64,000 bases of DNA from an uncultured delta proteobacterium. GTDB lineage: Bacteria; Myxococcota; Myxococcia; SLRQ01. Made by a program: the position numbers and the translations under genes. Positions 14,201 to 40,174 of this stretch are shown in pieces. Position 1 is the first letter of the stretch; every line of letters starts with the position of its first letter. Location: positions 64,001-128,000 of the forward strand of contig CAVSGM010000003.1 in the NCBI GenBank assembly GCA_963727485.1, written 5' to 3'. The notes beneath the pieces are model-generated. The model was given only the letters and a program-made list of their open reading frames with translations, was not told where the DNA came from and made no database searches.

Positions 14201-14468
14201 CGGTCCCCTCGACGACCGTGGGATCGGCGGTGATCTTCAGGTTGTCGTTGCCGGCGTTGCGGAGGGTGACGACCTGGTCGGCCTCGGCGTCCACCGCCGT
14301 GGGCGGGAAGGTGATCGACGTCGGGGTGACCTCGATCTTCGGGGCCACCTGGCTGACCCCGCCGCCCTGGCAGTCACAGCCGCCGGCGGCCGAGGCCACG
14401 GCGAAGCCGGCGGCCGCGAGGGTGAGGACGAGCCGGCCGGGACGACGCCTTGCAGGATTTGCGACCAT
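11206..14468 (-). CDS. Ig-like (choice-of-anchor D/ASH-type) repeat + vWA lipoprotein, copy A; apparent frameshifts at 11861-11865 and about 11328
   Basis: AGGCDC lipobox, six Ig-like repeats, IDNSCSM MIDAS motif and DYDTVCH* end shared with copies B-D. Confidence 0.85.
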
Positions 14469-14588
14469 TCGATCACCTCCGTGAGCCGTGCGCACGAATT
14501 GCACGGCCCACCCGTTCCTACCACGCCGGTCTGGCGCGGCGGCCGCGATCCCGGGCCGGGGGCACGGAGGTAAGGCGATCGCCTGGGG

Positions 14589-17500: not shown

Positions 17501-17839
17501 GTCGCCGGTGGTCTTGGCGGCGCCGGTGGCGCAGTCCACCGCGTCGAGGACCTGGCGCAGGGCCAGCTCGGTCTTCTGGTCCTCGGTCCCCTCGACGACC
17601 TTGGGGGTCGCCGTGATCTTCAGGGTGTCGTTCCCCGCGTTCCGGAGGGTCACCACCTGGTCCGCCTCGGCGTTCACCGCGGTGGGGGCGAAGGTGATCT
17701 TCGCCGGGGTGACCACGAGCGAAGGGGCCACGGTGCCCACCGAGCTCCCCTGGCAGTCGCAGCCGCCCGCCGAGGCGGCGAGGCCGAAGCCGAGGAGGAG
17801 CGCGAAGAGGGCGAAGCGACGGGGACGAAGATTTGCCAT
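14589..17839 (-). CDS. Ig-like repeat + vWA lipoprotein, copy B; apparent -1 homopolymer frameshift at 17252-17256
   Basis: ORF 17249-17839 and the C-terminal part of 14589-20657 together align collinearly with copy D; VDDSCSM MIDAS. Confidence 0.88.
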
Positions 17840-17944
17840 TCCCCTGCGCTACCATCCTCACTGACCAGGGCAACCGAAACCGGTCCCTGGCGGGGGGAGG
17901 TAAGGGAATGCCCGCAAAAGCTGCATTCTCCGGCCCCCGCCGGG

Positions 17945-20900
17945 CTAGTGGCACACGGTGTCGTAGTCCACGTCGACGGTCGCCCCCGGCGCCGGCACCG
18001 AGCCGCTGGCGAAGACCACCGCGTTGGACACCGGGTCGTAGGCCCACGCCGGCCGGGCCACCGCCTGCCCGTCCACCCGCACCCCGATGGTCGAGGCCAC
18101 CGCCGCCCGGGTGAGGTAGAACGCCGACCGGGCCCCGAAGGCGTTGAGGCCCAGGTCGTCGACGATGGCACCCCAGTCGCTGGCGCAGATGGACCGGGCG
18201 ATGCCCCCGGTCTGCCGGGTGACCGAGACGTAGCGGTCCCCGGCGAGGGCCTCGCCGCCCGCCGCCGTGTCGCAGGTCGCCGCCTGGTGGGTGGCGTCGT
18301 CGTAGCCGACCACCGAGGAGAAGCTGGTGAGGTCCGCGTTGTGGAACCCCTTCAGGGTCCGCAGGAAGTCCACGTAGTAGGGCAGGACCTCCGGGGACTG
18401 GTCGTCCTCGTCGCTGACCGCGATGATCACCAGCCTGGCCTCCCGCCGGAGGAAGCCGGCGTTGGCCGCCGGGTCGTCGACCAGCGGCGGGGTGAGGGCC
18501 GCTTCCACCGCCGCCAGGCCCTGCTCGATCCCCGAGCCCGAGGTCCCCAGCTTCGCGTCGTCGGCGAAGGCCTGCACCGGGTCGGGGATCGAGGGGGTGA
18601 TGATCCTCGGCGCCCCGTTGCGGGACTGGAAGCGCCCCGAGGCCTTGGGGTCGTACATGTCGGTGGTCACCACCGCCATCTGGTAGTTGGCGCTGAGCTG
18701 CACCGCCCGGCGGAAGAAGGCCTGGGCGTTGTCCGAAAGGTTCTGCTGCTTGTCGGCCATCGAGCAGGAGTCGTCGATCATCCACAGCACGTCCACCTCG
18801 GGGGCGCCCAGCTGCTGGAAGTGATCGGTCTGGTGGGCGTCGGCGCTCCCCTGCCCGGAGAGGGGCACGGTCAGAAGGCTCGTCCCGGTGGCGGTGCGGG
18901 TCTCGAGGGCCAGGAGCGCGGTGTGGGGCGTCGGGTCCGGGGGCCGGTAGCGGATCCGGAGCTTCACCTGGCCCCCGGCCGGGATCATCACCGGCAGCGG
19001 CGGGAGGCTCACGAGGGTGAAGGGCCCGCTCGCCGGCCGGCCCTTCCCCGGCGGGGCGAGGTAGGCGCTGGTGAGGGTGACCGCGGCGTCGCCGGTGTCG
19101 TAGAGGGTCACCGTCCGCTCCTGGGAGGCGCAGCCCACGGTGATCCGCCCGAAGTCCAGGCTCCCGGGGATCTCCTGGAGGTCCGGGGCGGCGCCCCGGC
19201 CCTGGAGGTAGACCGGGTCCTCGCCGCCGGGGACGGTGGGGTCGGTGGTGCGGATGCGCACCAGGCCGCAGTCGAGCTGGGGGTGGCCCGGGCGGTAGGT
19301 GACCCGGACCTCGCCCACCTTCCCCGGCTCGATGGTCCGGGCCAGCTGGCCGTCGACCAGCACCTGGTCGGCGCCGGTGGCCAGGGTGAAGCTCGGGTCC
19401 AGGGGGAAGCCCGGTGAGACCCCATCGAGGCGCACCGACGCGACGGTGCAGGGGAGGGCCCCGACGTTCTCCAGGCGCACCGGCAGGGTCTTGGGCGTCC
19501 CCAGCTCCACCACGCCGTAGGCGGCGATCCGGGGCTGGGTGGCCACCGGCACGCACCCCTGGAGGTCGAAGCTCCCGGGCCGGGGGGTCACCGAGAGCTG
19601 GCACCCGGCCTCGCCGGTGGGATTGCCGGTGAGGGCCACCTCCCGCGGGTGGCGCAGGGCGTCCCCGTCGAGGGTGAGGGTGCCTGCGTCGGGCCCGGTG
19701 GCGTCGGTGGGGTCGTAGGTGATCCCGAGGAACGCGATCTGCCCCGGGTCCAGGGTGTAGGGCGCAGGCCCGGGGGTCGCCGTCACCGTGAAGCGCACCG
19801 CGGCCCCGGCGGTGAGGGTGGCGGTGACCCCGGTGCAGGGGCGCCGTCCCGCGTTGGCCAGGGCCAGGGTCCGGGTCACGGGAAAGCCCGGGGCGGTCCG
19901 ACCGAAGTCCAGGACGGTGGCGGCGACCTGGAGGAGGCACGCGGGGGGCGCGTCCCCCTCGCCGAGGAGCGACACCGCGGCGCTGGGGACCACGGTGTCG
20001 GAGGTGTCGACGCGGAGGCGCCCGTGCAGCGGCCCGCCGGCGTCCGGGGTGAAGGTGATCGGCACCCGGGTGGTGGCCCCGGCGGCCAGGGGGATCGGGG
20101 TGGTGGGGGCGCCCGGTCCCAGGGCGAACTCGGGGCTTGGGCCCTGGCCGGCCCCGTCGAGGACCGAGAGGGCGGTGACCGTGAGGGGCTCGGTGCCGCA
20201 GTCGGTGAGGGTCACCGTCCGGGTGGCGCTCTGGCTCACGGCCACGGTGCCGAAGTCCTCGGTGGGCAGGGGGTCGGCGCAGAGCTTGGGGCCGTCCCCG
20301 TCCCCGGTCAGGGCCAGTGCCACCCGGCCCTGGGCCGGGTCGGAGGTGGCCACCTCCACGGTCTCCTGGTGGTGCCCGGCGGCCCCGGGGGTGAATTGGA
20401 CGGTCGCCTGGATCCCCTGGCCCGGGGCCAGGGCCCCGGTGGCGCCGAGGCTCGCCGGGTCGAGGGCGAAGGCCGGGTCCCCCGGGCTCGGGTCGGCGCC
20501 CCACTGGAGGCCGTCGAGGGCCGTGGCGCCCAGGTTCGCCACCGAGACCGGGCAGCTCCTGGACGCGTCCAGGGTCGTGGTGGGGAAGGGCACGGCGAGG
20601 GGCTGGCCGGGCTGGCTGCAGGTCTTCACGGCGGCGCAGTCCCCGGGGAGGAGGCACACCTGGAGCCGGGGCGCGTCGCCGGTGGCGGCGAGGGGGACGT
20701 CGACCTCGGGCCGGTGGCCGTCGTCGCTGTGGAGGACGAGGGTGCCCGTGTCGGTGCCCAGGTTCCCGGGCTGGTAGGTCACGGTGACCGTGGCGCAGCC
20801 CCCAGGGAGCAGGCGGGTCAGAGGGCCCCCGGCCCGGGGATCCCCGGTGCCGCAGTCCACCGGCTGGAGGACGTCCCGGAGGCCGAGCTCGGCGAGGGCG

Positions 20901-21163
20901 TCCTCGGCCCCCTCGACCACCTTCGGGGCCGCGGGGAAGGTCAGGGGCGCGTTCCCGGTGTTGCGCAGGGTCACCACCCGGTCGCCCTCGCCGCCCACCG
21001 CCGTGGGCGCGAAGGTCACCGCCGCCGGGGTCACCTCGAGGGTCGGCCCCACGGCGTCGAGGCCCCCGCCCTGGCAGTCACAGCCCCCGGCGGTCGACGC
21101 GGCGAGGCCGACGGCGAGGACGGCGACGAGGCGCCGCCGGGGGCGGTGGGAGCCCGGGCCCAT
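17945..21163 (-). CDS. Ig-like repeat + vWA lipoprotein, copy C (most divergent)
   Basis: Intact 1072-aa ORF with AGGCDC, IDDSCSM, SDEDDQS and DYDTVCH. Confidence 0.9.
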   Translation of the reverse strand: MGPGSHRPRRRLVAVLAVGLAASTAGGCDCQGGGLDAVGPTLEVTPAAVTFAPTAVGGEGDRVVTLRNTGNAPLTFPAAPKVVEGAEDALAELGLRDVLQPVDCGTGDPRAGGPLTRLLPGGCATVTVTYQPGNLGTDTGTLVLHSDDGHRPEVDVPLAATGDAPRLQVCLLPGDCAAVKTCSQPGQPLAVPFPTTTLDASRSCPVSVANLGATALDGLQWGADPSPGDPAFALDPASLGATGALAPGQGIQATVQFTPGAAGHHQETVEVATSDPAQGRVALALTGDGDGPKLCADPLPTEDFGTVAVSQSATRTVTLTDCGTEPLTVTALSVLDGAGQGPSPEFALGPGAPTTPIPLAAGATTRVPITFTPDAGGPLHGRLRVDTSDTVVPSAAVSLLGEGDAPPACLLQVAATVLDFGRTAPGFPVTRTLALANAGRRPCTGVTATLTAGAAVRFTVTATPGPAPYTLDPGQIAFLGITYDPTDATGPDAGTLTLDGDALRHPREVALTGNPTGEAGCQLSVTPRPGSFDLQGCVPVATQPRIAAYGVVELGTPKTLPVRLENVGALPCTVASVRLDGVSPGFPLDPSFTLATGADQVLVDGQLARTIEPGKVGEVRVTYRPGHPQLDCGLVRIRTTDPTVPGGEDPVYLQGRGAAPDLQEIPGSLDFGRITVGCASQERTVTLYDTGDAAVTLTSAYLAPPGKGRPASGPFTLVSLPPLPVMIPAGGQVKLRIRYRPPDPTPHTALLALETRTATGTSLLTVPLSGQGSADAHQTDHFQQLGAPEVDVLWMIDDSCSMADKQQNLSDNAQAFFRRAVQLSANYQMAVVTTDMYDPKASGRFQSRNGAPRIITPSIPDPVQAFADDAKLGTSGSGIEQGLAAVEAALTPPLVDDPAANAGFLRREARLVIIAVSDEDDQSPEVLPYYVDFLRTLKGFHNADLTSFSSVVGYDDATHQAATCDTAAGGEALAGDRYVSVTRQTGGIARSICASDWGAIVDDLGLNAFGARSAFYLTRAAVASTIGVRVDGQAVARPAWAYDPVSNAVVFASGSVPAPGATVDVDYDTVCH

Positions 21164-21189
21164 CCCAAAGGGCTACCACTCCTTGGGGA

Positions 21190-24100
21190 TCAGTGGCAGA
21201 CCGTGTCGTAGTCCACGTCGATGGTGGCGCCCTGGGGCGGCACCGAGCTGGCGTCGAAGATGATGGAGTTCGACGGGGCGTCGTAGCTCCAGGCCGGCTG
21301 GCTGACCTGCTGGCCGTTGACGTGGACCACGATGCTCGAGGGCACCGCCTCCCGGGTGAGGAAGAACTGGCTCTTGGCCCCGAAGGCGTTGAGGCCCAGG
21401 TCGTCGGCGATCTTGCCCCAGTCGGTGGAGCAGATGGACCGGGCGATGCCGTTGGTCCGGTTGGTCACCTCGACGTAGCGGGGGCCGGGGACCGCCTGGC
21501 CGCCGGTGGAGGTCGAGGTGCAGCTCGCCGCCTTCTTGGTGGACTCGTCGTAGCCGACGATCGACGAGAAGCTCATCAGGTCGGCGTTGTGGAAGCCCTT
21601 GATGTTCTTGAGGAAGTCCACGTAGAAGTCCACGGTGGCGCTGGACTGGTCGTCCTCGTCGCTCACGGCGATGACCACCAGCTTGGCGTCCTGGCGCAGG
21701 AAGCCGGCGTTGGCGGCGGGGTCGCTCAAGAGCGGGTCGGTGAGGGCGGCGTGGACCGCGGCGAGGCCCTTCTCGGTGCCCAATCCGTTGGTCCCCAGCA
21801 GCGCGTCGTCGGAGAACGCCTGCACCGGGTTGGGGGTGGAGGGGGTGATGATCTTCGGCGCCCCGTTCCGCGACTGGAACCGCCCCGACTCGTTGGGGTT
21901 GTCCATGTCGGTGGTGACCACCGCCAGGTGGAAGTCGGTGTTCAGCTGGGTGGCGCGCTGGAAGAAGGTCTGCGACTGGTCGGAGACGTTCTGCTGCTTG
22001 TCGCCCATGGAGCAGGAGTCGTCGATCATCCACAGCACGTCGACCATCGGCTGCGAGAGCTGGGTGAAGTGGTCGGTCTGGTGGCTGTCGGTGGTGCCCT
22101 GCCCGGAGAGGGGCACGGTCATGATCGCCGCGTTCTGGGCGTCGGACTCGATGACCAGCAGGGCGTTGTGGGTCTTGGCGTCGGGGGGCCGGTACTTCAC
22201 CTTCATCTGCACCGAGCCGCCGCCGGGCAGCGCCGCCGGCAGGGGGGGCATGCTGGTGATGGTGAACGGCCCGCTCGCCGGCTGACCGGCGCCCGGGGGG
22301 TCGGTGTAGATCTTGGTGATGTTCAGGGAGGCGCCGCCGGTGTTGTAGATGGTCACCGTGCGCTCCAGGGAGGCGCAGCCCACGGTGATCACCCCGAACT
22401 TCACCTCGGAGGGGATGACCTCGATGGCCGAGCGGACGCCCTGGCCCTGGAGGAAGACCTGGTAGCAGCCGGGCTGGGGGTTGGTGTTGGAGAACCCGCC
22501 GCACTCCGAGCCGTCGGAGTTGGTGTCGTTGGTCTGGATCATCAGGCTGCCGCAGTCCTGGGCCTCGGACGCGGGCTGGTACTGGACGTTGATCTGACCG
22601 ACCTGCCCGGGGTTGATGGTGTTGGTCTTGGTGCCGTTGACCACCACGGTGTTGGCCCCGTCGGGGAGGGTGTAGTTGGGGTCCGGCGGCGACAGGGGGA
22701 TCGCCGCGACCAGCTTCGCCGAGCTCACGGTGCAGGGGATGGAGCCGGTGTTCTCCAGGGAGGCGGTGATGACCTTGGTCTTGCTCACCCGCACGGTGCC
22801 GAACTCGGCGACCCGGGGGGTGAAGCTGGTGATGAAGCAGTTCCCGAAGCTGAAGTTGCCCGTGCGCGGGGTGACGTTGAGGGTGCACGAGGGCGCCGAG
22901 GCGGGCGTGCCCTGGAGGGTCACGTCCAGGGGCCCGGCCGCGTCGGGGGAGGCGAGCTCCAGGGTGCCGGTGTCCGGCGGGGTGGTGTCCTGGGGGTCGT
23001 ACTTCAGCTGGAGGGTGATGATGTCACCGGGGTGGAGGACGAAGGGCGAGGGGTTGCCGAGGATGGAGAAGGTCACCCCGGTGCCGGCGGTGACGGTGGC
23101 GGTGACCCCGGTGCAGTCGAGCTTGCCGGGGTTGGAGACCGCCAGGGTCTTGGTGACCGGGTAGCCCGGGGCGCCGGTGCCGAAGTCGAGGGTCTGGGTG
23201 GCGACCTGGAGCTGGCAGCTCGGGGGCACCACGCCCTGACCGGTGAGGTTCACCCAGCCAGAGGGGACCACCGGGTCGGTGGACTCGAGGTAGAGCCGCC
23301 CGTTGAAGGTGGTCGCCGAGTCGGGCTTGAAGTCGACGGGGACCTGGGTGCTCTGGCCGGCGGCGAGCTGGATGGGCGCCGCGGGGGCGCTCGAGCCCAT
23401 GGTGTACTGGGTGCTGGCGCCCTGGCCGGTGGCGTCCTGGACCTGGAGCTTGGTGACCGAGAGGGCCATGGTCCCGCAGTTGGTGAGCTTGATGTTCTTG
23501 GTCGAGGTCTGGCCCACGGTGACCTGGCCGTAGTCCTCGGTGGGCACCGGGTCGGGGCAGAGCTTGGGGCCGTCGCCCTTGCCGTCGAGGTCGATGTCGA
23601 GGACCGGCTGGTCCGGGTCGCTGGAGGTCATCTCCACCAGGGCCTGGTGGTCGCCGCCGGCCTTGGGCGAGAAGTGGATCTTGGTCTGTATCCCCTGGCC
23701 CGGGGCGAGGTCGCCGGTGGCCTTGAGGTCCGCCGGATCCAGCACGTAGTCCTTGTAGCGGTTGCCGCTCTTGAAGCTCCAGGTGAGGTTCTTGAGGGGG
23801 AGCTGGCCCACGTTGTCGATGGACACCGCGCAGGTGGTGGTGGCGCCGATCCCGGTGAGGGGGAAGGGCAGGGTCAGGTGCTGGCCGGTCTGGTTGCAGG
23901 TCTTCTGCGAGACGCAGTCCCCGGCGAGGAGGCAGACCTTGATCTTGGGGGCGGCCCCGCTGGCGGTGATGGGGACGTCGACCTCGGCGTGCTGCTTGTC
24001 GTTGCTCTTGATGACCAGCTTGCCGGTGTCGTTGCCGATGTTCAGGGGCCGGTAGACCACCATCACCGTGGCGCACTGGCCCGGGAGGAGGTTCGAGGGG

Positions 24101-24450
24101 TCCTTGACGGTGCGGGCGGCGCCGGTGGCGCAGTCCACCGGGCTCAACACCTGGCGCAGGGCCAGCTCGGTCTTCTGGTCCTCGGTGCCCTCGACAATCT
24201 TGGGGTCGGGGCTGACGGTGAGGGTGTCGTTCCCGGTGTTCTTGATGGTCACCAGCTGGGTCGCCTCGGCCTTGACCGCCGTGGGATCGAAGGCGATCGC
24301 CTTGGGGGTGACCTCGATGACCGGAGCCACCTGGTTGATGCCCCCGCCCTGGCAGTCGCAGCCCCCCGCCGCCGAGGCGACGAAGAGTCCGGTGAGGACG
24401 ACCACGAGTAGGGCGTTGGTGTGCCGGCGCTGGGCCGTGTTTGCCGTCAT
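21190..24450 (-). CDS. Ig-like repeat + vWA lipoprotein, copy D
   Basis: Intact ORF with probable start ATG at 24450 (MTANTAQRRH), AGGCDC and IDDSCSM. Confidence 0.9.
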   Translation of the reverse strand: MTANTAQRRHTNALLVVVLTGLFVASAAGGCDCQGGGINQVAPVIEVTPKAIAFDPTAVKAEATQLVTIKNTGNDTLTVSPDPKIVEGTEDQKTELALRQVLSPVDCATGAARTVKDPSNLLPGQCATVMVVYRPLNIGNDTGKLVIKSNDKQHAEVDVPITASGAAPKIKVCLLAGDCVSQKTCNQTGQHLTLPFPLTGIGATTTCAVSIDNVGQLPLKNLTWSFKSGNRYKDYVLDPADLKATGDLAPGQGIQTKIHFSPKAGGDHQALVEMTSSDPDQPVLDIDLDGKGDGPKLCPDPVPTEDYGQVTVGQTSTKNIKLTNCGTMALSVTKLQVQDATGQGASTQYTMGSSAPAAPIQLAAGQSTQVPVDFKPDSATTFNGRLYLESTDPVVPSGWVNLTGQGVVPPSCQLQVATQTLDFGTGAPGYPVTKTLAVSNPGKLDCTGVTATVTAGTGVTFSILGNPSPFVLHPGDIITLQLKYDPQDTTPPDTGTLELASPDAAGPLDVTLQGTPASAPSCTLNVTPRTGNFSFGNCFITSFTPRVAEFGTVRVSKTKVITASLENTGSIPCTVSSAKLVAAIPLSPPDPNYTLPDGANTVVVNGTKTNTINPGQVGQINVQYQPASEAQDCGSLMIQTNDTNSDGSECGGFSNTNPQPGCYQVFLQGQGVRSAIEVIPSEVKFGVITVGCASLERTVTIYNTGGASLNITKIYTDPPGAGQPASGPFTITSMPPLPAALPGGGSVQMKVKYRPPDAKTHNALLVIESDAQNAAIMTVPLSGQGTTDSHQTDHFTQLSQPMVDVLWMIDDSCSMGDKQQNVSDQSQTFFQRATQLNTDFHLAVVTTDMDNPNESGRFQSRNGAPKIITPSTPNPVQAFSDDALLGTNGLGTEKGLAAVHAALTDPLLSDPAANAGFLRQDAKLVVIAVSDEDDQSSATVDFYVDFLKNIKGFHNADLMSFSSIVGYDESTKKAASCTSTSTGGQAVPGPRYVEVTNRTNGIARSICSTDWGKIADDLGLNAFGAKSQFFLTREAVPSSIVVHVNGQQVSQPAWSYDAPSNSIIFDASSVPPQGATIDVDYDTVCH

Positions 24451-27787: not shown

Positions 27788-29741
27788 CTAGAGGTCGATT
27801 CTGGGTGCCGACCTCGACCACGCGGTTCGGGGGGATGTTGAAGAACCGGGTGGCGCTCTGGGCGTTGCGGGACATGAACACGAAGAGGCGCTCCCGCCAG
27901 ATGGCCATCCCCGGGCGCTTGGTGGCGATGAGGGTCTCGCGGGAGAGGAAGAACGTGGTGTTCTGCAGGGTGGCCTTGAAGTCGTGGGTCTTCGCCAGGT
28001 TCTCGAGGACCTCGGGGATCGAGGGCTCGTCCATGAAGCCGTTGTGGACCACCACCCGGTACATCTCGGCGCCGAGGGTCTCGAACTGCACCCGGCGCTT
28101 CGAGGGCACGTGGGGGATCTCCTCGGTGACCACGGTGAGGAGGATCACCTGCTCGTGCATGACCTTGTTGTGCTTGAGGTTGTGGAGGAGCGCGCCGGGG
28201 ACGCCCTGGGGGTTGCCGGTCATGAACACGGCGACGCCGGAGACGCGCTGGGGCGGGTTCTCGACGATGCCCTGGAGGAAGCCGTCCACCGAGGCGGTGG
28301 TGGCCCGGAGGCGGTTGGAGAGGATCTCCCGGCCGCGCTTCCAGGTGGCCATGACCGTGTAGACCATCGCCGCCACCAGGAGGGGGAACCAGCCACCGGC
28401 GGGGATCTTGATGATGTTCGCCCCGAAGAAGGCCAGGTCGAAGATGAGGAAGAAGAGGCAGAGGCTCCCCGAGAGCCACCGGCTCCAGCCCCAGATCCGC
28501 CGGCTCACCACGTAGAAGAGCACGGTGGTGATGACCATGGTCGTGGTCACCGCCACCCCGTAGGCCGCGGCGAGGTTCGTCGACCGCTTGAACCCGAGCA
28601 CCAGGGCGATGGTGGTGAGCATCAGGGTCCAGTTGATCAGCGGGATGTAGATCTGGCCCCGCTCCTTGGCCGAGGTGTGGTCGATCTGCACGCGGGGGAA
28701 GTAGCCGAGCTGCACCCCCTGCATGGTCAGGGAGAAGGCGCCGGTGATCACCGCCTGGCTGGCGATGACCGTGGCCATGGTCGCCAGCGCCACCAGCGGG
28801 TAGAGCGACCAGTGGGGGGCGAGGCGGAAGAAGGGGTTGTGGGCCGCCTCGGGGTTGTGCAGCAGCAGCGCCCCCTGGCCCAGGTAGTTGAGCAGCAGGG
28901 ACGGGAGCACCACCGCGAACCAGGCCAGCCGGATGGGCTTGGCGCCGAAGTGGCCCATGTCGGCGTAGAGGGCCTCGCCGCCGGTGACCACCAGGAACAC
29001 CGCCCCGAGGACGAGGATCCCGCCGATGCCGTGGGCCATGAAGTACTCGACGGCGTAGTGGGGGCTCAGGGCGAAGAGGACGTGGGGCTCGCGGACGATG
29101 CCGCCGACCCCGAGGACCGCCAGGGTGAGGAACCAGACGGCGGTGATGGGCCCGAAGATGGCCCCGACCCGGGCGGTGCCGTGGCGCTGCACCAGGAAGA
29201 GGCCGACGAGGATCCCGATGGTGATGGGGATGACCCAGGTCACCAGGGCCGGGGTGGCGACCTCGAGGCCCTCCACCGCCGAGAGCACCGAGATGGCCGG
29301 GGTGATGACCCCGTCGCCGTAGAGGAGGGCGGCGCCGAAGAGGCCGAGGGCCACGATGGTCCAGGTGGCCTTCCCGGCGCCCTCGGGCCTCGCGAGGGCC
29401 ATGAGGGCGAGGATGCCGCCCTCGCCCTCGTTGTCCGCCCGCATGATGAACACCAGGTACTTGAAGGAGATCACCAGCACCAGCGACCAGAAGATGAGCG
29501 AGAGCACCCCCATGATGTTGGCCGGGGTGACCGCCATGGCGTAGTCCCCGAAGAAGCACTCGCGCAGCGCGTAGAGGGGGCTGGTGCCGATGTCGCCGTA
29601 GACCACCCCCAGGGCGGTCAGCGCCATCAGGTAGAGGTACTTGCCGTGGACGTCGTGCTTGTGATCGGCGGCGGCCCCGGGTTTCGGGGGCGGGGGCTGC
29701 GCCTCGTCCTTGCCGGACGGGGCCTCGGGGGTGTCTGCCAC
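27788..29741 (-). CDS. kup: Potassium transporter Kup; apparent frameshift at 27797-27801 just before the stop
   Basis: GVVYGDIGTSPLYA, DNEGEGG, EALYADMGHFG and NRVVEVG; correcting GATTC to GATC gives TQIDL*. Confidence 0.95.
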
Positions 29742-32360: not shown

Positions 32361-32823
32361 ATGGACGCCTCCGCCCTCAAGCAGATCGAGCTCTTCAACG
32401 GGCTCACCCACCGCCACCTCGAGGCGTTGGCGTCGATCACCGAAGATCGCACCCACGACGCCGGCACCCGGCTCTTCGCCGAGGGGGACGCCGGAGACGA
32501 GCTGTTCATGGTCCTCAAGGGCAAGGTCCGGATCTCCAAGATTGTCGAGGGGGTGGGCGAGGAGGCCCTGGCCATCCTCGAGCCCGGCGCCTACTTCGGC
32601 GAGATGGCCCTGGTCAGTGATCTCCCCCGGTCCGCCCACGCCACCTGCAACACCCCGGTGGAGGTGGGCGTCATCCGCCGGGAGGCCTTCGAGCAGCTCC
32701 TCTTCCTCGACAAGGATTCTCGCCTACGAGCTGCTCTGGACCTTCGTGCGCACGCTGTCCCGGCGGCTGGCCGAGACCAACGACAAGATCAAGGCGTTCT
32801 TCGCCATGTCGAGCCGCTTCTAA
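32361..32823 (+). CDS. Stand-alone cyclic nucleotide-binding domain protein; apparent frameshift at 32715-32719
   Basis: FAEGDAGD and [13 protein letters not shown]; the corrected C-terminus reads [24 protein letters not shown]. Confidence 0.85.
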
Positions 32824-32917
32824 GGAGGGGCCCCCGGGCCCCCCACAGGTAAGGTCGGACCACGGGAGCCCAAACGGGCCTTCCAGGTAGACTCCGCCAC
32901 CCCGCAAGGCCTGCATC

Positions 32918-35122
32918 ATGACGTTCCAGCTCGTCCTCGCCGTGGTCCTCCTGCTCGTCGTCGCCGGTGCCGGCGTCGCCGTGATGGCCTCACTGCGCAA
33001 GAAGCGCGAGGCCAAGGATACCGCTGCCTTCCACGCCTCCCGGGAGCGTGAGCTCCACATCCCGGTGTCGCTCCACCCGGTCATCGACCCGGACATCTGC
33101 ATCGGGAGTCTCGCCTGCATCCGGGCCTGCCCCGAGGGTGACATCCTGGGCATCGTGGAGGGGACGGCGCGGCTCATCGAGGGAGCCAAGTGCATCGGCC
33201 ACGGGCGCTGCGCCGAGGAGTGCCCGGTGGACGCCATCAAGCTGGTCTTCGGCTCCGGCGAGCGCGGGGTCGACCTCCCCAGCCTCGCCGCCGGCTTCGA
33301 GACCAGCCGCCCCGGGGTCCACATCGTGGGCGAGCTCGGGGGCATGGGGCTCATCAAGAACGCCATCGCCCAGGGGGTGCAGGTCGTCGACCACCTGGCC
33401 AAGACCGTCGCCAACCCCGGCAACGGGGCCACCGACGTGGCCATCGTCGGCGCCGGGCCCGCCGGGCTCGCCGCCGCCGCCGCCTGCCGCACCCACGGCC
33501 TCTCCTTCCGCCTCCTGGAGCAGCACACCCTCGGCGGCGCCGTGGCCCACTACCCGCGCCAGAAGCTGGTGATGACCGAGTCGGTGGAGGTCCCCGGCTA
33601 CGGGCGCATCGGCAAGAAGACCCTCCGCAAGGAGGAGATCCTCGAGACCTTCCAGGACCTGGCCACCACCACCGGGGTGACGGTCGAGGAGGGGGTGAAG
33701 GTCGAGTCCCTCGAGGGCGACCTCGACCGCTTCGTCCTCCACACCACCCAGGGCACCGTGCAGGCCCGGCGGGTGGTGCTGGCGGTGGGCCGCCGGGGCA
33801 CCCCGCGCAAGCTGGGCGTCCCCGGCGAGGAGCTCGACAAGGTCACCTACGGCCTCATCGACCCCGACCAGTACGAAGGCAAGCGGGTGATGGTCATCGG
33901 CGGTGGCGACAGCGCCATCGAGGCGGCGGTGATGCTCGCCGAGGACACCGGGGCCGAGGTCTCAATCTCCTACCGCGGCCCCGCCTTCGCCCGCTGCCGC
34001 CCCGCCAACCGGGAGGCCATCGAGCGGATGGTGGACGCGGGGCGGATCCACGCCTTCATGAGCTCCAACGTGCGGGCCATCGAGGACGACGCCGTCCTCA
34101 TCGACGTCGGCGGGCGCCAGGCCTGGCTCGCCAACGAGTACGTCATCGTCAACATCGGGGGCGAGCTCCCCTTCGCGTTCCTGGAGAACGTGGGCGTCGA
34201 GGTCAAGCGCCACCACGGCGAGGACCGGGGCTTCAAGCCCGGGGTCGACTTCGACCAGGAGGAGAAGGCCAGCCGCCGGCTCAACCTCAGCCTCTTCGGC
34301 GTCGGCGCGGCGATCATCGCCTTCCTCGCCATCGTCGGCTGGAGCTACTACCTCATCCCCGTCGACCTGCGGCCCAACTCGCCCCTGGACGCGGCCCTCA
34401 AGCCGTCGGGGTGGTGGGGGCACGGCGTGGGCATCGTGGCCACCGGGTTCATGATGCTCAACTTCCTCTACGCGGGCCGCAAGCGCCTCAAGTTCCTGAA
34501 CCGGGGGAAGCTGCGCAACTGGCTCTCCTTCCACATGTTCGTGGGGTTCATGGCGCCCCTGGTCATCGTGTTCCACGCCGCCTTCCAGTCCCGGAACCTG
34601 CTGGCGACGGTGACCGCGGTGTCGCTGGGGATCGTGGTCGCCACCGGCATCATCGGCCGCTTCCTCTTCGGCCTGGTGCCCACCAGCAAGGGCAAGGCGG
34701 TGGAGCTCGCCACCCTGCGCAGCCGCTGGGAGCGCCACCGCTCGCGGATCACCAACCTGATGGCGGCCTCGGCCTCGCGCCTCGAGGCGCGCAAGCTTCT
34801 GGCCTGGGCCACCACCGAGCTCCCCGACGACGTCACCCTCACCCGCCACCTGCTGGAGATGCCCGGGGAGCTGACCCGGGCCTGGAAGGGCCTGAACGCC
34901 GCGAGGCCGCTGTTCGGCGAGGCCGAGCACTTCAAGGACTTCCGCAACGGCTACCTGCGCCTCCTGCTGATGCGGACCCAGGTGGGCTTCTACAAGAGCC
35001 TCAAGCGCCTGATGGGGGTGTGGCGGATTCTCCACGTGGCCCTGGCCGTCCTCATGGTATTCGTCATCGCCGCCCACATCGGCGTGTCCCTCTACATCGG
35101 CTACACGTGGATCTTCCACTGA
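32918..35122 (+). CDS. Membrane-anchored ferredoxin + FAD/NAD(P)H oxidoreductase fused to a ferric-reductase-like bis-heme-b membrane domain
   Basis: N-terminal TM helix; CIGSLACIRACP and CIGHGRCAEECP; GAGPAG; GGGDSA..ISYR; C-terminal TMs with two H-x13-H pairs. Confidence 0.85.
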   Translation: MTFQLVLAVVLLLVVAGAGVAVMASLRKKREAKDTAAFHASRERELHIPVSLHPVIDPDICIGSLACIRACPEGDILGIVEGTARLIEGAKCIGHGRCAEECPVDAIKLVFGSGERGVDLPSLAAGFETSRPGVHIVGELGGMGLIKNAIAQGVQVVDHLAKTVANPGNGATDVAIVGAGPAGLAAAAACRTHGLSFRLLEQHTLGGAVAHYPRQKLVMTESVEVPGYGRIGKKTLRKEEILETFQDLATTTGVTVEEGVKVESLEGDLDRFVLHTTQGTVQARRVVLAVGRRGTPRKLGVPGEELDKVTYGLIDPDQYEGKRVMVIGGGDSAIEAAVMLAEDTGAEVSISYRGPAFARCRPANREAIERMVDAGRIHAFMSSNVRAIEDDAVLIDVGGRQAWLANEYVIVNIGGELPFAFLENVGVEVKRHHGEDRGFKPGVDFDQEEKASRRLNLSLFGVGAAIIAFLAIVGWSYYLIPVDLRPNSPLDAALKPSGWWGHGVGIVATGFMMLNFLYAGRKRLKFLNRGKLRNWLSFHMFVGFMAPLVIVFHAAFQSRNLLATVTAVSLGIVVATGIIGRFLFGLVPTSKGKAVELATLRSRWERHRSRITNLMAASASRLEARKLLAWATTELPDDVTLTRHLLEMPGELTRAWKGLNAARPLFGEAEHFKDFRNGYLRLLLMRTQVGFYKSLKRLMGVWRILHVALAVLMVFVIAAHIGVSLYIGYTWIFH

Positions 35123-37662
35123 CCCCAAGGGCCACCCGCCTGCTGGCGGGCGCGGCGGCGGTCCTCTGCCTCTGGGCGACGCCCGGCGTGGCGCGGGCGC
35201 AGATCCTCTCCCCGGGGAAGCTGGCCGAGGTCCACAAGCACCTCGAGGGGCTCACCAACTGCACCAAGTGCCACGGCGGCGGGTCGGCGGTCTCCGAGCC
35301 CCGGTGCCTCGCCTGCCACACCCTGGTGCGCAGCCGGGTGAAGGCCGGCAAGGGCCTCCACGGGCGGCTCTCCACCAAGCAGCTCGCCTGCGAGAAGTGC
35401 CACACCGACCACCGGGGCCGGGACGCCAACATCATCAAGTGGGGCGCCGGGGGCGAGAACGGCTTCGACCACGCGCGCGCCGGGTGGCCGCTCACCGGGG
35501 GCCACAAGAAGGTCGACTGCAAGCAGTGCCACACCCGAAGGCTCATCGTGCAGCTCGACGTGAAGCAGTACCTGGCCAAGCACCCCAGGATGCACACCTG
35601 GCTGGGGCTCTCCCAGCGCTGCGCCAGCTGCCACTTCGACGAGCACCGGGGCCAGGAGTCCACCAACTGCGCGCTGTGCCACGACACCAAGAAGTGGATC
35701 CCGGCGCCGCTGTTCAACCATGACAAGACCGCCTACAAGCTCCGGGGCAAGCACCGCCGCGTGGCCTGCGTGAAGTGCCACGCCCGGAAGGCCGACACCA
35801 CCACCCCCGCCGACGCCTTCCCCAAGCCGGTGAAGCAGGACTACGAGGTCTTCAAGCCCGTCAAGCACGCCCGGTGCCTCGACTGCCACGCCGACCCCCA
35901 CAAGGGGAAGTTCGGGCTGAACTGCGAGGGCTGCCACACGGTCAACGGGTGGAAGATCATGAAGGCGAGCGTCAACAAGATCGCCTTCCACCAGAAGACC
36001 CGGTTCCCCCTCGTCGGCGCCCACCTCACCGTGAGCTGCCGCGCCTGCCACGGGCCCTTCCCCGGGCAGAAGGCCGTCTTCCGGGGGCTGCCGTTCAAGC
36101 GCTGCACCGACTGCCACGCCGACGCCCACCAGGGGCAGACCGGCAAGCTCGACTGCGACGCCTGCCACACCCTCTCCAGCTTCTCCCCGGCGAAGTTCAG
36201 CATCGCCGACCACGCCAAGAAGACCGACTACCCGCTGGAGGGCGCCCACGCGGCGGTGGCCTGCAACCTCTGCCACACCCCGAACCGGCGCCTGCTGCGC
36301 CAGGTGAGCTGGCGGGTCAAGCGCAAGCTCAAGCGGGAGCGGCGGCCGCTCCTGGTCAGCGACATGCGCCTCTCGATCCCCAAGCGGGATCGCAAGTGCC
36401 TCTCGTGCCACCTCAACCCCCACGGCCACCAGCTCGACGACGCCATCCGCAAGCACGGGTGCATCGAGTGCCACGTGGTCAAGGACTGGCACGACGTCAG
36501 CCGCTTCGACCACGACACCGAGAGCCGCTTCCCCTTGAACGGCGGCCACGCCAAGGTGGCCTGCGGCAAGTGCCACTTCCAGAAGGTGAAGATCGCCGGC
36601 AAGCTTCAGATCCTCTACCGGCCCCTGTCGATGGAGTGCGAGAGCTGCCACACCGACGTCCACCTGGGGCAGTTCCAGGGCACCGCCAAGAGCCGCTGCG
36701 TCGACTGCCACACGGTGAAGACCTGGAAGGTGACCAGGTTCGTCCACCGGCCGCCGTTCACCCGGTACACCCTCACGGGAGCCCACGCGAAGCTCAAGTG
36801 CGCCGCCTGCCACGTGCCCATCCGGGTCGACGGCCACCAGGCGGTGCGCTACCGCCCCCTGCCCTCGAAGTGCGAGGGGTGCCACGCCGACTTCCACCAC
36901 GGGGCCTTCGCGAGCCTGAAGATGAAGGGCGTGAAGCAGGGCGCCGGCTGCGCCGCCTGCCACACGGTCAAGAGCTGGTCCGACGCCACCTTCGACCACG
37001 ACCCCACCGGCTTCCCCCTCGAGGGCGCGCACCGGACGGCGAGCTGCTGGGGCTGCCACATGAAGGACCTCTCGGCGCCGATCCCCAAGACCTGCAGCGG
37101 CTGCCACAAGGATCCCCACGCCGGCCAGCTCGGCACCCAGTGCGACACCTGCCACGACGAGTCCACCTGGAAGTCGAGCTTCGGGCCGGTGCAGCACGCG
37201 CGCACCGGCTTCCCCCTCACCGGGCGCCACGCGACCATCCCCTGCCAGGAGTGCCACTTCGAGGCGCGCAACCAGACCTTCAGCCGGGTCAGCCCCAGCT
37301 GCTACGGCTGCCACCGCGCCGACTTCAACCGGGCCGCCACCGTCTCCATCGACCACGTGAAGGCGGGCTTCTCCCACGACTGCGCCCAGTGCCACTCCAC
37401 CTGGGCCTGGACCCCGGCGGCGTTCCCCGGCCACGACACCTGCTTCCTCATCAGCGGCGGGCCCCACGACCGGATCACCTGCCGGGGCTGCCACACCTCC
37501 CTGACCGGGGCGACCATCACCGGGGCCTGCAACTCGGGCACCTACACCTGCGTGCGCTGCCACGCCCACGACAAGACGCGGTCCGATGCGCAGCACCAGA
37601 ACGTCCCCGGCTACCAGTACAAGGACCAGAAGTGCTACGAGTGCCACAAGTTCGCGGGGTAG
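35107..37662 (+). CDS. Secreted 30-heme c-type cytochrome (ten triheme c7-like modules)
   Basis: Sec signal ending ARA/Q; 30 CxxCH motifs counted; repeated FxH..FPL.G.H distal-His motifs; probable GTG start overlapping the upstream gene. Confidence 0.92.
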   Translation: MDLPLTPRATRLLAGAAAVLCLWATPGVARAQILSPGKLAEVHKHLEGLTNCTKCHGGGSAVSEPRCLACHTLVRSRVKAGKGLHGRLSTKQLACEKCHTDHRGRDANIIKWGAGGENGFDHARAGWPLTGGHKKVDCKQCHTRRLIVQLDVKQYLAKHPRMHTWLGLSQRCASCHFDEHRGQESTNCALCHDTKKWIPAPLFNHDKTAYKLRGKHRRVACVKCHARKADTTTPADAFPKPVKQDYEVFKPVKHARCLDCHADPHKGKFGLNCEGCHTVNGWKIMKASVNKIAFHQKTRFPLVGAHLTVSCRACHGPFPGQKAVFRGLPFKRCTDCHADAHQGQTGKLDCDACHTLSSFSPAKFSIADHAKKTDYPLEGAHAAVACNLCHTPNRRLLRQVSWRVKRKLKRERRPLLVSDMRLSIPKRDRKCLSCHLNPHGHQLDDAIRKHGCIECHVVKDWHDVSRFDHDTESRFPLNGGHAKVACGKCHFQKVKIAGKLQILYRPLSMECESCHTDVHLGQFQGTAKSRCVDCHTVKTWKVTRFVHRPPFTRYTLTGAHAKLKCAACHVPIRVDGHQAVRYRPLPSKCEGCHADFHHGAFASLKMKGVKQGAGCAACHTVKSWSDATFDHDPTGFPLEGAHRTASCWGCHMKDLSAPIPKTCSGCHKDPHAGQLGTQCDTCHDESTWKSSFGPVQHARTGFPLTGRHATIPCQECHFEARNQTFSRVSPSCYGCHRADFNRAATVSIDHVKAGFSHDCAQCHSTWAWTPAAFPGHDTCFLISGGPHDRITCRGCHTSLTGATITGACNSGTYTCVRCHAHDKTRSDAQHQNVPGYQYKDQKCYECHKFAG

Positions 37663-37741
37663 GCGTCTTGACCACACGCGTCCTTACAACGGCGCCGGAT
37701 CGGCTGACGGACGGCGGCGCAACCAGGGATAATCACGCCTG

Positions 37742-38575
37742 ATGCGTCGCCTCGCCCCACGCGTCCTGGTGCTCGCCTGCGCCGGGGTCCTCCTCGCCGC
37801 CGCCGCCTGCGGTGACGCCGGGGACAACCGCCACACCAACCACTGGCTCACGGCCCTGACGCCGTCGGACCACGCGACCTGGTTCCCCATCGACTCCGGT
37901 GCCCACAAGGGGATGGACTGCAACCTCTGCCACGGCAGCTTCGACAGCTTCAAGGGCTTCAGCTGCACCGGGTGCCACGCCCACGACCAGTCGGTCACCG
38001 ACCCCCTCCACAGCGGGGTCCCCGGCTACAGCTACGGGCCCACCACCTGCTACATGTGCCACAAGAACGGCACGGTGCGCTTCGACCTCGCCCAGCACCA
38101 GAAGGCCTTCCCCATCGGGGACGGCACGCCCCATGCCACCGAGGCCTGCAGCGACTGCCACAGCGACTCCAGCCGCCTCGGCGAGGTGGCCTTCGTCACC
38201 TGCGGCAGCTGCCACGCCCACAGCCAGGCCAAAACCGATCCCTTCCACAACCAGCCCAAGGACGGGGGCGCCCCGGTGGGCCAGATCTACGCCTGGGGCG
38301 TGAACACCTGCATCCAGTGCCACCTCGACGGGCGCATGCTCCTGCGCGCCGACCACACCCCGCAGGCGACCTACAACGGCAACAACGTCGCCATGGGACC
38401 GCACCTCCAGGGCGCCATGTGCGCCGACTGCCACCTCACGCGAGACTTCAAGACCTTCACCTGTGGCCCCTGCCACGACCCCGGGGGCTTCGCCGCGGAG
38501 AAGACCGCGGCCTGCGACACCGCCAAGGGCTCAGCGTGCACCGATCTCGAGAAGTACAACTACTTCTACAAGTGA
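37742..38575 (+). CDS. Octaheme c-type cytochrome lipoprotein
   Basis: Lipobox AAAC and 8 CxxCH motifs counted. Confidence 0.9.
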   Translation: MRRLAPRVLVLACAGVLLAAAACGDAGDNRHTNHWLTALTPSDHATWFPIDSGAHKGMDCNLCHGSFDSFKGFSCTGCHAHDQSVTDPLHSGVPGYSYGPTTCYMCHKNGTVRFDLAQHQKAFPIGDGTPHATEACSDCHSDSSRLGEVAFVTCGSCHAHSQAKTDPFHNQPKDGGAPVGQIYAWGVNTCIQCHLDGRMLLRADHTPQATYNGNNVAMGPHLQGAMCADCHLTRDFKTFTCGPCHDPGGFAAEKTAACDTAKGSACTDLEKYNYFYK

Positions 38576-40174
38576 CACCGGTGCGGGCGCTGGGCCTCTG
38601 CGTGATCCTCGGGTTGATGGTGACGGGTCACCCGGCTCATGCCGGACGGGGCCGGGTCACCTACGCCACCGAGCACTGGGCGTTCCTCGACCAGGGGCGC
38701 GCCGACGGCCTGGTCGACGGGCGGCGGGTGGCGCTGGTCCGCCACGGCCATCGGGTGGGACGGTGCCGGGTCGAGCACGTGGCCGAGCACCACGCCGCCT
38801 GCGCCATGCGCGGGGCCCGGTCCGGAGATCTGGCGGTGTTCCGGGGGCGGGCGCCCCGGCCCCAGCGGGAGGCGCTGGGCAAGCCCCCGGCGCCGGTGTC
38901 CCGGGCGGTGGCCCGGCACTTCGCGCGGCTGCGCATCGCCCGGGTGCCCTTCCGGGGGACCTTTGGCGCCGGGAACCTCACGGGGATGGCCCTCGCCGTG
39001 GACGTCCAGCACCAGAGCTGGGTGGGGCTGGCGGCCACCGCCACCCGCTACCACCGCGAGTCGGTGGAGATCTCGCTTGCGGGGATCCCCATCTGGAACG
39101 GGTTCACCGCCTCCGCCGACGCCACGGTGGCCTGGTGGCCCGACCGCCCCAGCAACACCCGCTACCGCCCCGACACCCCGCTCCAGCTCTTCGTGTGGCA
39201 GACCGCGGTGACCCGCCGGGCCCCCGGCGGCCTGACCCTCTCCGCCGGGCGCTTCGTGCCCTGGCACACCCCGGGGCTCACGCTGCTCGACGGGGTGCAG
39301 GCCGGGTGGGCGCCCGCGTCGGGGACCGCCGAGGTGGGCCTCTACGCCGGGACGCTGCCGGACATCATGACCCTGGCTCCGTCCACCAGCCAGTGGACCA
39401 CCGGCGCCTACTTCTCCCAGCGGCTCGGGACCAACCAGGCCTTCCGCTTCAGCTACGAGGGCCGCCTCGCCTTCACCCACTACGCCAACGACCCGGCCCG
39501 GGTGGAGACCGAGGTGGTCACCTCCACGGACATCGGCTCGGCGGTCTCCGCGGACCTCGACCTGCGCCTGGCCCTGGTGGGCCAGACCCAGCCGGCGCCG
39601 GGGGTGGACGCCTTCCGGGGGTCGGTGACGGTGCGGCCGGCCGACGGGATCTCGGTGCGCGCCGGGTACCGGTACCTCTCGCCGTTTGCCGCCGACGCCG
39701 ACGCCCTCTTCGCCTGGAACGTCCCCGGGAGCCGGCACCTGTCGGCCTCGGTCTCCTGGGCCCTGTCCCCGGACCTGACCCTGGGGGTCGACGGCGACGG
39801 CGCCTGGATCCTCGACCAGGTGAGCACCACCCGCGCCGACATCGGGCCCTCCGTGGACTTCCCCCACCTCTTCGGGGAGCACGGCGGGGTCTCCCTGGGC
39901 GTGCGCGAGGGCTTCGGGTGGACCGGCGGGCCGGTGGCCTGGGCCCAGGCGATTCTGGTCGCCCCACCGGGGCTTCCACCTGATGCTCCGCGGCGACTAC
40001 ATGTCCACCACCTTCGTGGGGCGCGTGGGCGATCGGCTCCAGGAGGGCGGGCTCTACGGGAGCGTGGACTTCGACCTCACCCGGACCCTCTCGGCGCGGC
40101 TCGCCCTGGGCGGGCGCGGGGGGTTCGGGACCGGGGCGATCACCGCGAACGCCGGGATCACCGGGCGCTTCTAG
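38572..40174 (+). CDS. Putative outer-membrane beta-barrel with a small N-terminal domain; apparent frameshift at 39951-39955
   Basis: Signal peptide ending AHA, amphipathic aromatic-rich beta-strands and C-terminal ...AGITGRF*; GTG start overlaps the cytochrome stop. Confidence 0.72.

Follow-up and report, generated by a model that had tools for sequence, protein, structure and literature searches.

A PCC3-type cytochrome cluster from Myxococcota with a predicted FAD-NADPH module fused to its dihaem membrane protein: a candidate quinone-independent wire to the cell surface

From which donor does a multihaem cytochrome wire that crosses the cell envelope draw its electrons? To our knowledge, the characterized porin-cytochrome conduits of Gram-negative bacteria take them from the quinone pool. 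The question arises for a gene cluster in the window analysed here, a stretch of 64,000 nucleotides (positions 64001-128000 of contig C3, CAVSGM010000003.1, of genome G000; G000:C3:64001-128000) from a Myxococcota genome of 5.55 Mb that is 93% complete. Its components make the cluster a Myxococcota version of PCC3, a system predicted by He et al. in 2017 (PMC5566968). We hold with moderate confidence that it would act as a PCC3-type trans-envelope wire exporting electrons from cytoplasmic NADPH (reduced nicotinamide adenine dinucleotide phosphate) without quinones. The cluster consists of four genes:

32918..35122, forward strand: inner-membrane enzyme of 734 residues, with an N-terminal anchor helix, a 2[4Fe-4S]-type ferredoxin, a circularly permuted FAD (flavin adenine dinucleotide)-NADPH domain resembling YpdA and ferredoxin-NADP+ reductase (FNR), and a PCC3-type five-helix dihaem domain
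35119..37662, forward strand: secreted 30-haem cytochrome c, a fusion by alignment of a 20-haem part (residues 1-600) and a 10-haem part (residues 611-847)
37742..38575, forward strand: 8-haem lipoprotein cytochrome, the variable third cytochrome and a probable surface module
38572..40174, forward strand: outer-membrane β-barrel of 533 residues, an intact homologue being modelled with 22 strands and a small N-terminal β domain

An earlier note on this DNA had described five co-oriented genes, the fifth encoding a cyclic-nucleotide (cNMP)-binding protein immediately upstream, with two overlapping junctions. All five open reading frames do lie on the forward strand, and the overlaps are found at 35119-35122 (CTGA) and 38572-38575 (GTGA). 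As read from the sequence, the 30-haem gene appears to start with the CTG of the CTGA that it shares with the upstream stop; no ATG, GTG or TTG was found ahead of its signal peptide.

The same note did not recognize the locus as a characterized system. This holds in that the cluster is functionally uncharacterized, but its four components match those of the predicted PCC3. In the text of He et al. available to us (PMC5566968), PCC3 consists of a porin, an extracellular cytochrome (median of 34 haems), a periplasmic cytochrome (median of 21 haems) and a 300-residue five-helix protein harboring an SGXXG and two WX3HX13H motifs; it was proposed, as a hypothesis, to pass electrons to and from the pool of quinones. 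The membrane domain of the window enzyme has the corresponding size (about 300 residues), five helices in the model and both WX3HX13H motifs (W535/H539/H553 and W702/H706/H720). The SGXXG motif is present as T576-G577-x-x-G580, both glycines being invariant, with serine in the consensus of the split forms and threonine in the fused clade. The domain matches the split forms by profile (E = 5.7e-56, one window row being common to both profiles) and a protein labelled Sideroxydans sp. by sequence (24% identity, E = 5e-12); the close relatives of one betaproteobacterial membrane protein bear Gallionellaceae, Sideroxydans and Sideroxyarcus names. The 20-haem part, at about 27 residues per haem like the 30-haem protein as a whole, fits the PCC3 periplasmic cytochrome (22-39 residues per haem) and matches the intact 24- or 27-haem proteins of 12 of 13 betaproteobacterial loci (E = 1e-62 to 1e-80). 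With regard to the second, extracellular cytochrome of PCC3 (10-85 haems), the window has a 10-haem part fused to the first cytochrome, followed by the 8-haem lipoprotein. As to the porin, the homologue P0126 of the window barrel is modelled as an outer-membrane barrel with 22 strands. The 13 betaproteobacterial loci display the PCC3 layout, with 24 or 27 haems (one protein being split into two frames) plus 11-62 haems, in agreement with reported PCC3, and with a flavoprotein adjoining.

The cluster in the window differs from PCC3 as reported (four genes, Proteobacteria only, quinone-linked) in the fusion of the membrane protein to a ferredoxin/FAD-NADPH module. In addition, one protein unites its 20- and 10-haem cytochromes, there is an extra 8-haem lipoprotein, the tetratricopeptide-repeat (TPR) region of the proteobacterial porins is missing from the barrel, and TGXXG replaces SGXXG. 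Later papers, in the parts available, treat PCC3 as a four-component, untested system (PMC10734462; bioRxiv 2025.02.27.639646; PMC8788666; PMC11429942; PMC13386937); one of them gives both PCC3 clusters of S. lithotrophicus ES-1 (Slit_0867-0870 and Slit_1446-1449) as down-regulated on Fe(II) compared with thiosulfate (PMC8788666). The 'PCC3 architecture' of PMC13013709 is a different usage, designating Geobacter-type conduits. No report of an NADPH or FAD partner of a PCC3-type cluster was found in the literature searched, which included few subscription papers. The main text of PMC5566968 is devoid of the terms FAD and pyridine and the text of its supplement of FAD, oxidoreductase and cNMP, although its figures, outside this text check, may draw the PCC4 flavoprotein; the accessible parts of PMC7399161, PMC7096707 and PMC2330069 contain nothing on an NADPH module. 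What appears to be new is an NADPH module that counts among the core subunits of PCC3 and here forms a single chain with the membrane domain.

The enzyme comprises four segments:

33074..33244, forward strand: ferredoxin domain (residues 53-109), with CxxSxxCxxxCP and CxxHxxCxxxCP motifs
33269..33418, forward strand: permuted segment (residues 118-167) with GELGGMGLI, normally the C-terminal end of an FAD domain of the thioredoxin reductase (TrxR) fold, here placed before the first Rossmann motif
33419..34213, forward strand: FAD and NADPH Rossmann domains (residues 168-432), with GAGPAG, GGGDSA, S-Y-R and an invariant Arg353, and no CxxC redox disulfide
34274..35119, forward strand: PCC3 inner-membrane-protein domain (residues 453-734), with W535-x3-H539-x13-H553, T576-G-x-x-G580 and W702-x3-H706-x13-H720, predicted to hold two b haems

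Pfam matches were obtained for a 4Fe-4S dicluster domain (residues 53-109), for Pyr_redox_3 (176-430) and, below threshold, for Ferric_reduct (505-584). The histidine of the second ferredoxin cluster is present in all 89 matched homologues, and the first-cluster position is occupied by serine in 53 of 91 homologues, by cysteine in 23, threonine in 12 and alanine in 3. The best NCBIfam match of the enzyme is YpdA (TIGR04018), at 155 bits against a cut-off of 339.9. Its score for the TrxB family is 72.9 bits against a cut-off of 343, and the lack of a CxxC pair in residues 168-432 likewise places it outside the thioredoxin reductases. The closest solved structures of the FAD-NADPH domain are those of YpdA/Bdr and of TrxR-type FNRs (7a76, E = 6e-25; structural Z score of 16.3, root-mean-square deviation (rmsd) of 8.9, 249 residues aligned). 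All these matches end near residue 433, so that they miss about 45 residues of a complete FAD domain. A profile built from residues 118-167 hits three unpermuted paralogues at their residues 275-317 (E = 4e-17 to 6e-15) and, weakly, the C-terminal FAD motif of the TrxB encoded in the window. Because the missing C-terminal piece is found ahead of the Rossmann motif, the FAD domain is, on these profile matches, circularly permuted, and the flavin end therefore adjoins the ferredoxin in the sequence. The GGGDSA and arginine motifs are markers of NADPH in this family and, with Arg353 invariant, point to NADPH as the predicted preferred donor. Relatives are numerous: of 8000 candidates scored, 7997 pass an E value of 1e-20, and among the best 120 almost every one is full length, with 50-57% identity. 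Contigs G486:C44, G520:C35 and G582:C10 encode proteins of 830-1060 residues that have the permuted FAD domain (query residues 119-431, E = 1e-79 to 1e-86) and no ferredoxin match, a third class of paralogues. We considered the chromate/selenite reductase FesR, which has FAD and two 4Fe-4S clusters, as a relative and rejected it: as described in the sections available (PMC8957926), it belongs to another fold family, has another domain order and no membrane segment.

The membrane domain had been taken for a bis-His haem-b domain, and conservation agrees: the four histidines of H539-x13-H553 and H706-x13-H720 are invariant in all 70 aligned membrane domains, and two such pairs on parallel helices are a feature of the PF01794 superfamily. 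The model of the enzyme (predicted local distance difference test (pLDDT) of 74) contains one anchor helix and five further membrane helices. From charge distribution and hydropathy, the flavin domain would be cytoplasmic, H539 and H706 would lie on the inner side of the membrane and H553 and H720 on the outer side.

Do the NADPH module and the membrane protein travel together in other genomes? The loci of the best 80 of at least 596 relatives were surveyed in species-representative genomes; cytochromes were counted from scans of all open reading frames, since the gene caller had missed several. The loci belong to Myxococcota, Pseudomonadota, Bacteroidota and Ignavibacteriota, and to a further eight labelled groups. 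Eighteen are of the fused form, 69 contain the membrane protein, 65 a cytochrome with at least seven haems and 27 the barrel as detected by a Myxococcota profile, many of the contigs being short. Of the 32 loci flanked by 8 kb or more on each side, all 32 hold a cytochrome of at least seven haems and 31 the membrane protein. All fused forms group in one clade (SH-aLRT of 100, quick tree), and the window enzyme is placed by a quick tree in a clade of Myxococcota sequences. One relative, G030, harbors two full-length copies of the fused enzyme (on G030:C10 and G030:C3).

The converse was examined in unselected samples of genomes. In 251 genomes of a betaproteobacterial order, a strong match to the membrane protein (E < 1e-60) was found in 14 genomes and a strong match to the flavoprotein (E < 1e-170) in the same 14; in 13 of these pairs the genes are divergent and 238-426 bases apart. 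Strong matches to both occur in the same 4 of 201 genomes of an alphaproteobacterial family and, among 101 genomes from the class that includes G004, in the same 20 (E ≤ 4e-50 and ≤ 8e-160). In total, 38 of the 553 genomes contain both genes at high score and none contains only one at that level; left out of these 38 are 24 genomes whose membrane-protein matches are weak and 17 whose flavoprotein matches are weak. The earlier note had made its proposal depend on co-occurrence in other genomes, and the genes do co-occur, across many phyla. Accessory genes were also seen. In the alphaproteobacterial locus L054:5728-9966, ccmF-ccmG-ccmH-cycH lie between the membrane protein and the flavoprotein, and five more loci contain frames of like size. 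An ankyrin-repeat protein follows the flavoprotein in several loci and a 200-residue TPR protein is found in FCB-type loci (these loci include L031, L043, L075, L057 and L060).

The order NAD(P)H, FAD, Fe-S, haem b and cytochrome, already suggested for this locus, is the best reading of the enzyme. We infer cofactor binding, the order of transfer, the contacts and the direction of flow from the domains, cofactor motifs and fusion that are present in the sequence, from the modelled barrel fold and from co-inheritance. NADPH would donate a hydride to FAD, which would pass single electrons to the two Fe-S clusters, one of them His-ligated. From the clusters, electrons would reach first the inner b haem and then the outer one, which would reduce the conserved N-terminus of the 30-haem cytochrome. 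The 20-haem part would span the periplasm, and the 10-haem part, the 8-haem lipoprotein or both would pass through or cap the barrel, from which Fe(III) or Mn minerals, humics or a partner cell could be reduced. No quinone would be required, as in NOX and ferric reductases. Reasoning from the chemistry and not from measured potentials, outward flow from NADPH would be downhill and aided by the membrane potential. Since electrons would leave the cell and protons stay inside, proton-motive force would be spent, so that the wire would probably serve to dispose of surplus reductant or to reduce low-potential acceptors outside the cell, not to respire. Export is favored by the co-inheritance described above and by the single chain that the FeS/FAD module forms with the dihaem domain in the window and in 18 of the 80 loci. 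The four invariant histidines, the resemblance of the FAD domain to YpdA/Bdr and TrxR-type FNRs, the modelled barrel and the down-regulation of both ES-1 clusters on Fe(II) (PMC8788666) also count for it, as does the donor of the characterized ferric-reductase-domain proteins, a cytosolic NAD(P)H enzyme (PMC12525009). The genome also encodes NapC/NirT, NrfD modules, haem-copper oxidases and cytochrome c maturation genes; the separate NapC/NirT and NrfD modules indicate that quinone-fed routes exist apart from the cluster.

Several observations weigh against export from NADPH. The ferredoxin part of the enzyme model is unreliable (pLDDT < 50). The membrane domain scores 18.9 bits for Ferric_reduct (PF01794), below the curated cut-off of 28, and only 14 of 70 members match this family at E ≤ 0.01; its profile retrieved coiled-coil noise and no relative among PDB sequences, and the fold search hardly probed this domain. 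In L036, the 32nd of the loci with long flanks, the membrane protein lies about 19 kb from the flavoprotein, and in at least one locus, L065, the 9.9 kb upstream and 4.2 kb downstream of the flavoprotein contain none of its partner genes. The thresholds for co-occurrence were set at gaps seen in the scores, three centre genomes among the 38 were picked through their flavoprotein match, and kin are not independent in such counts. A quinone site is a further point: MsrQ, a ferric-reductase-domain protein, binds ubiquinone, so the dihaem domain may hold such a site, and 6 of 70 members match the quinone-reactive Ni_hydr_CYTB family. Together with the model of He et al. for PCC3 (PMC5566968), these two observations favor a three-way junction, in which a quinone site in the dihaem domain would link the wire to the quinone pool and the flavin module would form a second branch, from NADPH to quinone or to the wire. 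We regard this arrangement as rather unlikely: strict co-inheritance and fusion with an NADPH module are unexpected if quinol alone fed the wire, and, in the material consulted (PMC12525009), the ubiquinone of MsrQ is an acceptor and cannot be its donor, MsrQ and STEAP taking their electrons from cytosolic NAD(P)H enzymes.

The wire could also run inward, NADP+ being reduced through an FNR-like terminal step by an external donor of very low potential (metallic iron, a cathode, reduced minerals or a partner cell). The FAD domain resembles TrxR-type FNRs, which can run from ferredoxin to NADP+. PCC3 is moreover reported to be common in Fe(II)-oxidizing Gallionellaceae (PMC10734462). Such a flow is nevertheless improbable in our view; on the same chemical reasoning, its donor would have to lie far below the NADPH couple. 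We give slightly less credence again to a wire that is fed by NADPH and is not a surface conduit, in which the cytochromes would store electrons in the periplasm or feed a periplasmic reductase and the barrel would only secrete or anchor the lipoprotein. The barrel, with 22 strands in the model, is smaller by strand count than MtrB, which has 26, and matches it no better than it matches unrelated barrels (Z of 15.5, rank 24). Related clusters lacking a porin do exist (Table S6 of PMC5566968). Two observations speak against this reading: the 20- and 10-haem cytochromes are fused end to end, and the barrel gene keeps its place next to the cytochromes. It does so in all fused loci of sufficient length and in 11 of the 13 betaproteobacterial ones; the remaining two stretches stop before it.

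Since 2017, iron oxidation has been the candidate, untested role of PCC3, and a link to quinones has been assumed. An NADPH module fused to or co-inherited with the membrane subunit changes both the predicted donor and the predicted direction, and quinone-free export from NADPH would argue against PCC3 as an Fe(II) oxidase. Extending the export reading to the whole family, we tentatively propose that PCC3 might be a five-component, quinone-independent NADPH-to-surface oxidoreductase present in at least ten phyla, a NOX-like enzyme with a giant haem wire as its acceptor, spending proton-motive force; it would then be a reductase miscounted as a candidate Fe(II) oxidase, and PCC4 its cyclic-nucleotide-gated sister. 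If this is true, PCC3 counts in metagenomes of iron oxidizers, FCB-group bacteria and myxobacteria would have to be reinterpreted, a new entry route into extracellular electron transfer would be added, and the four genes of the cluster would form a compact path for electrons between NADPH and an electrode.

The cluster's layout of periplasmic cytochrome, barrel and lipoprotein cytochrome is that of MtrCAB and of the Geobacter OmbB-OmaB-OmcB conduit, which have far fewer haems and are fed from quinol by a separate CymA, ImcH or CbcL. YpdA/Bdr and the TrxR-type FNRs, like the window enzyme, lack a CxxC pair but are soluble and unpermuted, with neither ferredoxin nor membrane domain. Ferric-reductase-domain proteins have six helices, and NOX a plant-type FNR dehydrogenase domain. 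These proteins and the MsrQ-Fre-MsrP system resemble the predicted window enzyme in that a flavoenzyme using NAD(P)H in the cytosol is coupled to a transmembrane haem domain of the bis-His type, with an acceptor on the outer side, as far as the source was available (PMC12525009); they differ from it in that this acceptor is O2, a ferric chelate or MsrP, with no multihaem wire, and in having no Fe-S relay. PCC4 and the 'MHC + IMP + redox protein' clusters share a related dihaem membrane protein, and He et al. list an 'other redox protein' of 796-805 residues, in the portion consulted (PMC5566968). The PCC4-type redox protein, of about 800 residues, has a paralogous YpdA-like FAD domain with Fe-S clusters, but its order is FAD-cNMP-cNMP-FeS, unpermuted and unfused to the membrane protein, and its cytochromes have 4, 5, 9 or 10 haems; the cluster in the window, with 30 and 8 haems, lacks the three periplasmic cytochromes of 4, 5 and 10 haems that define PCC4. 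PCC4-type loci form a separate, weaker-scoring class. All six loci examined from this class (L136-L141) contain a protein of about 800 residues with FAD and cNMP matches beside 4-, 5-, 9- or 10-haem cytochromes, and the proteins of the three loci that were scanned (e.g. L137:8071-10434) are of the FAD-cNMP-cNMP-FeS type. The PCC4-type and 9-haem clusters are possibly a cyclic-nucleotide-regulated sister system.

The haem counts given previously for the two cytochromes were exact. The gene at 35119-37662 encodes 30 CxxCH motifs and 71 histidines, leaving 41 beyond those of the motifs, enough for bis-His ligation, and the gene at 37742-38575 encodes eight CxxCH motifs and a lipobox-like LAAAC with Cys24. 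Residues 1-600 of the large protein are 45-47% identical to separate 20-haem proteins, and residues 611-847 are 42-49% identical to separate 10-haem proteins, each from three Myxococcota loci; on these alignments, the 30-haem protein is a fusion of cytochromes encoded by separate genes in most Myxococcota loci. The single 30-haem sequence had no match in the PDB, whereas a profile of its N-terminal part matched best 3ov0 (E = 1.5e-14), which we take to be the Geobacter dodecahaem GSU1996; for TIGR03508 (DmsE/MtrA decahaem), the score was 60 bits against a cut-off of 192. The third cytochrome is variable in relatives, with 7-29 haems, or is missing, and the 8-haem lipoprotein of the window is probably a surface module. 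In L010:14789-17842, a 13-haem lipoprotein cytochrome and the barrel share one open frame of 1017 residues, either a real fusion or an assembly error.

The last gene had been predicted to encode a transmembrane barrel, and its intact homologue P0126 (50% identical), folded with 130 sequences, does model as an outer-membrane barrel of 22 strands beginning at residue 144 (pLDDT of 89.5, predicted template-modelling score of 0.76). The best structural matches of this model are outer-membrane barrels (Z of 19.9, rmsd of 4.7, 364 residues aligned); the shared fold would indicate location, not function. The porin of the L. cholodnii PCC3 is likewise predicted to have 22 strands, in the part of the source available (PMC5566968). 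The family has 598 representatives at E ≤ 0.001. Searches of Pfam and NCBIfam with the window barrel returned no match, the MtrB family included, and a search of the ESM Atlas with the homologue returned unnamed clusters only. In a test on nine sequences, the barrel profile matched porins of FCB-type and betaproteobacterial clusters at E values of 1e-11 and 3e-5, two others being weak or unmatched.

One gene was removed from the proposed system:

32361..32824, forward strand: stand-alone cNMP-binding protein of 153 residues, outside the conduit and a member of a trxB-cNMP-radC-recQ neighbourhood

Its inclusion does not hold, since in relatives devoid of the cluster it is located between trxB and radC. 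Of 30 relatives, 20 have an orthologue and 8 the fused enzyme. All 20 orthologues have trxB at a distance of about 1.5 kb or less, 13 have radC there and none the enzyme, and the three genomes holding both the cNMP gene and the enzyme have them on different contigs. From these gene neighbourhoods, positions 32918-40174 are a cassette of four genes whose insertion has parted the cNMP gene from radC. The adjacent trxB was rejected as a partner of the enzyme, as it goes with the cNMP gene and none of the nine enzyme loci of the relatives has it within 1.5 kb. One contig from public run X2 runs from the cNMP gene into the beginning of the enzyme gene, indicating that the left junction is not misassembled. 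Within the cassette, a promoter scan returned a single weak sigma70-like match (37704-37733), too near the start codon to carry weight, and terminator-like matches in the region are at chance level. The cassette ends have no telling repeats, and codon use does not set the cassette apart as foreign. No RNA dataset was among the listed public runs matching the locus.

Are the barrel and cNMP genes broken, as the assembly has them? In the barrel gene, skipping one base at GATTC 39951-39955, the repair called for in the earlier note, restores one reading frame of 533 residues ending in Phe, and the intact homologue aligns across the break. A second break, absent from the text of that note, is located in the cNMP gene at GATTC 32715-32719. 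Genome-wide, a +1 frame jump was found at 218 of 474 scorable coding GATTC sites, as opposed to 1-2% for the control motifs GATC, GACTC, GATCC, GATTG, GGTTC, GCTTC and GATGC (720-2023 sites each) and 0-33% for six sparse control motifs (6-134 sites). Contigs from public runs have one base fewer at 32717/8 in three of four runs (X1, X2 and X3) and at 39953 in one of four (X2, the sole listed piece covering the site). The excess at GATTC and the shorter public contigs rule out real lesions: both breaks are assembly errors, the two genes are intact, and the assembly puts an extra T into GATC. The cause may be, at a guess, a methylation-linked long-read error. The end of the gene for the Kup potassium transporter breaks likewise at GATTC (window positions 27797-27801), and any apparent pseudogene or programmed frameshift at GATTC or GAATC in the G000 assembly is suspect.

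Two further loci of this genome were noted. On the reverse strand of the window, positions 11319-24450 contain a tandem of about four paralogous genes for secreted or lipoprotein products of 1000-1100 residues made of ASH/HYDIN/Cep192-like Ig domains, one of which is seemingly split near 17200. A second cytochrome cluster (L163:4873-10494, at about G000:C2 1339800-1345500) encodes a 10-haem cytochrome with MtrC-like domains, an 11-haem and a 12-13-haem cytochrome, and a 433-residue protein without Pfam match that is a possible porin; a NapC/NirT gene and one for a protoglobin histidine kinase are close by.

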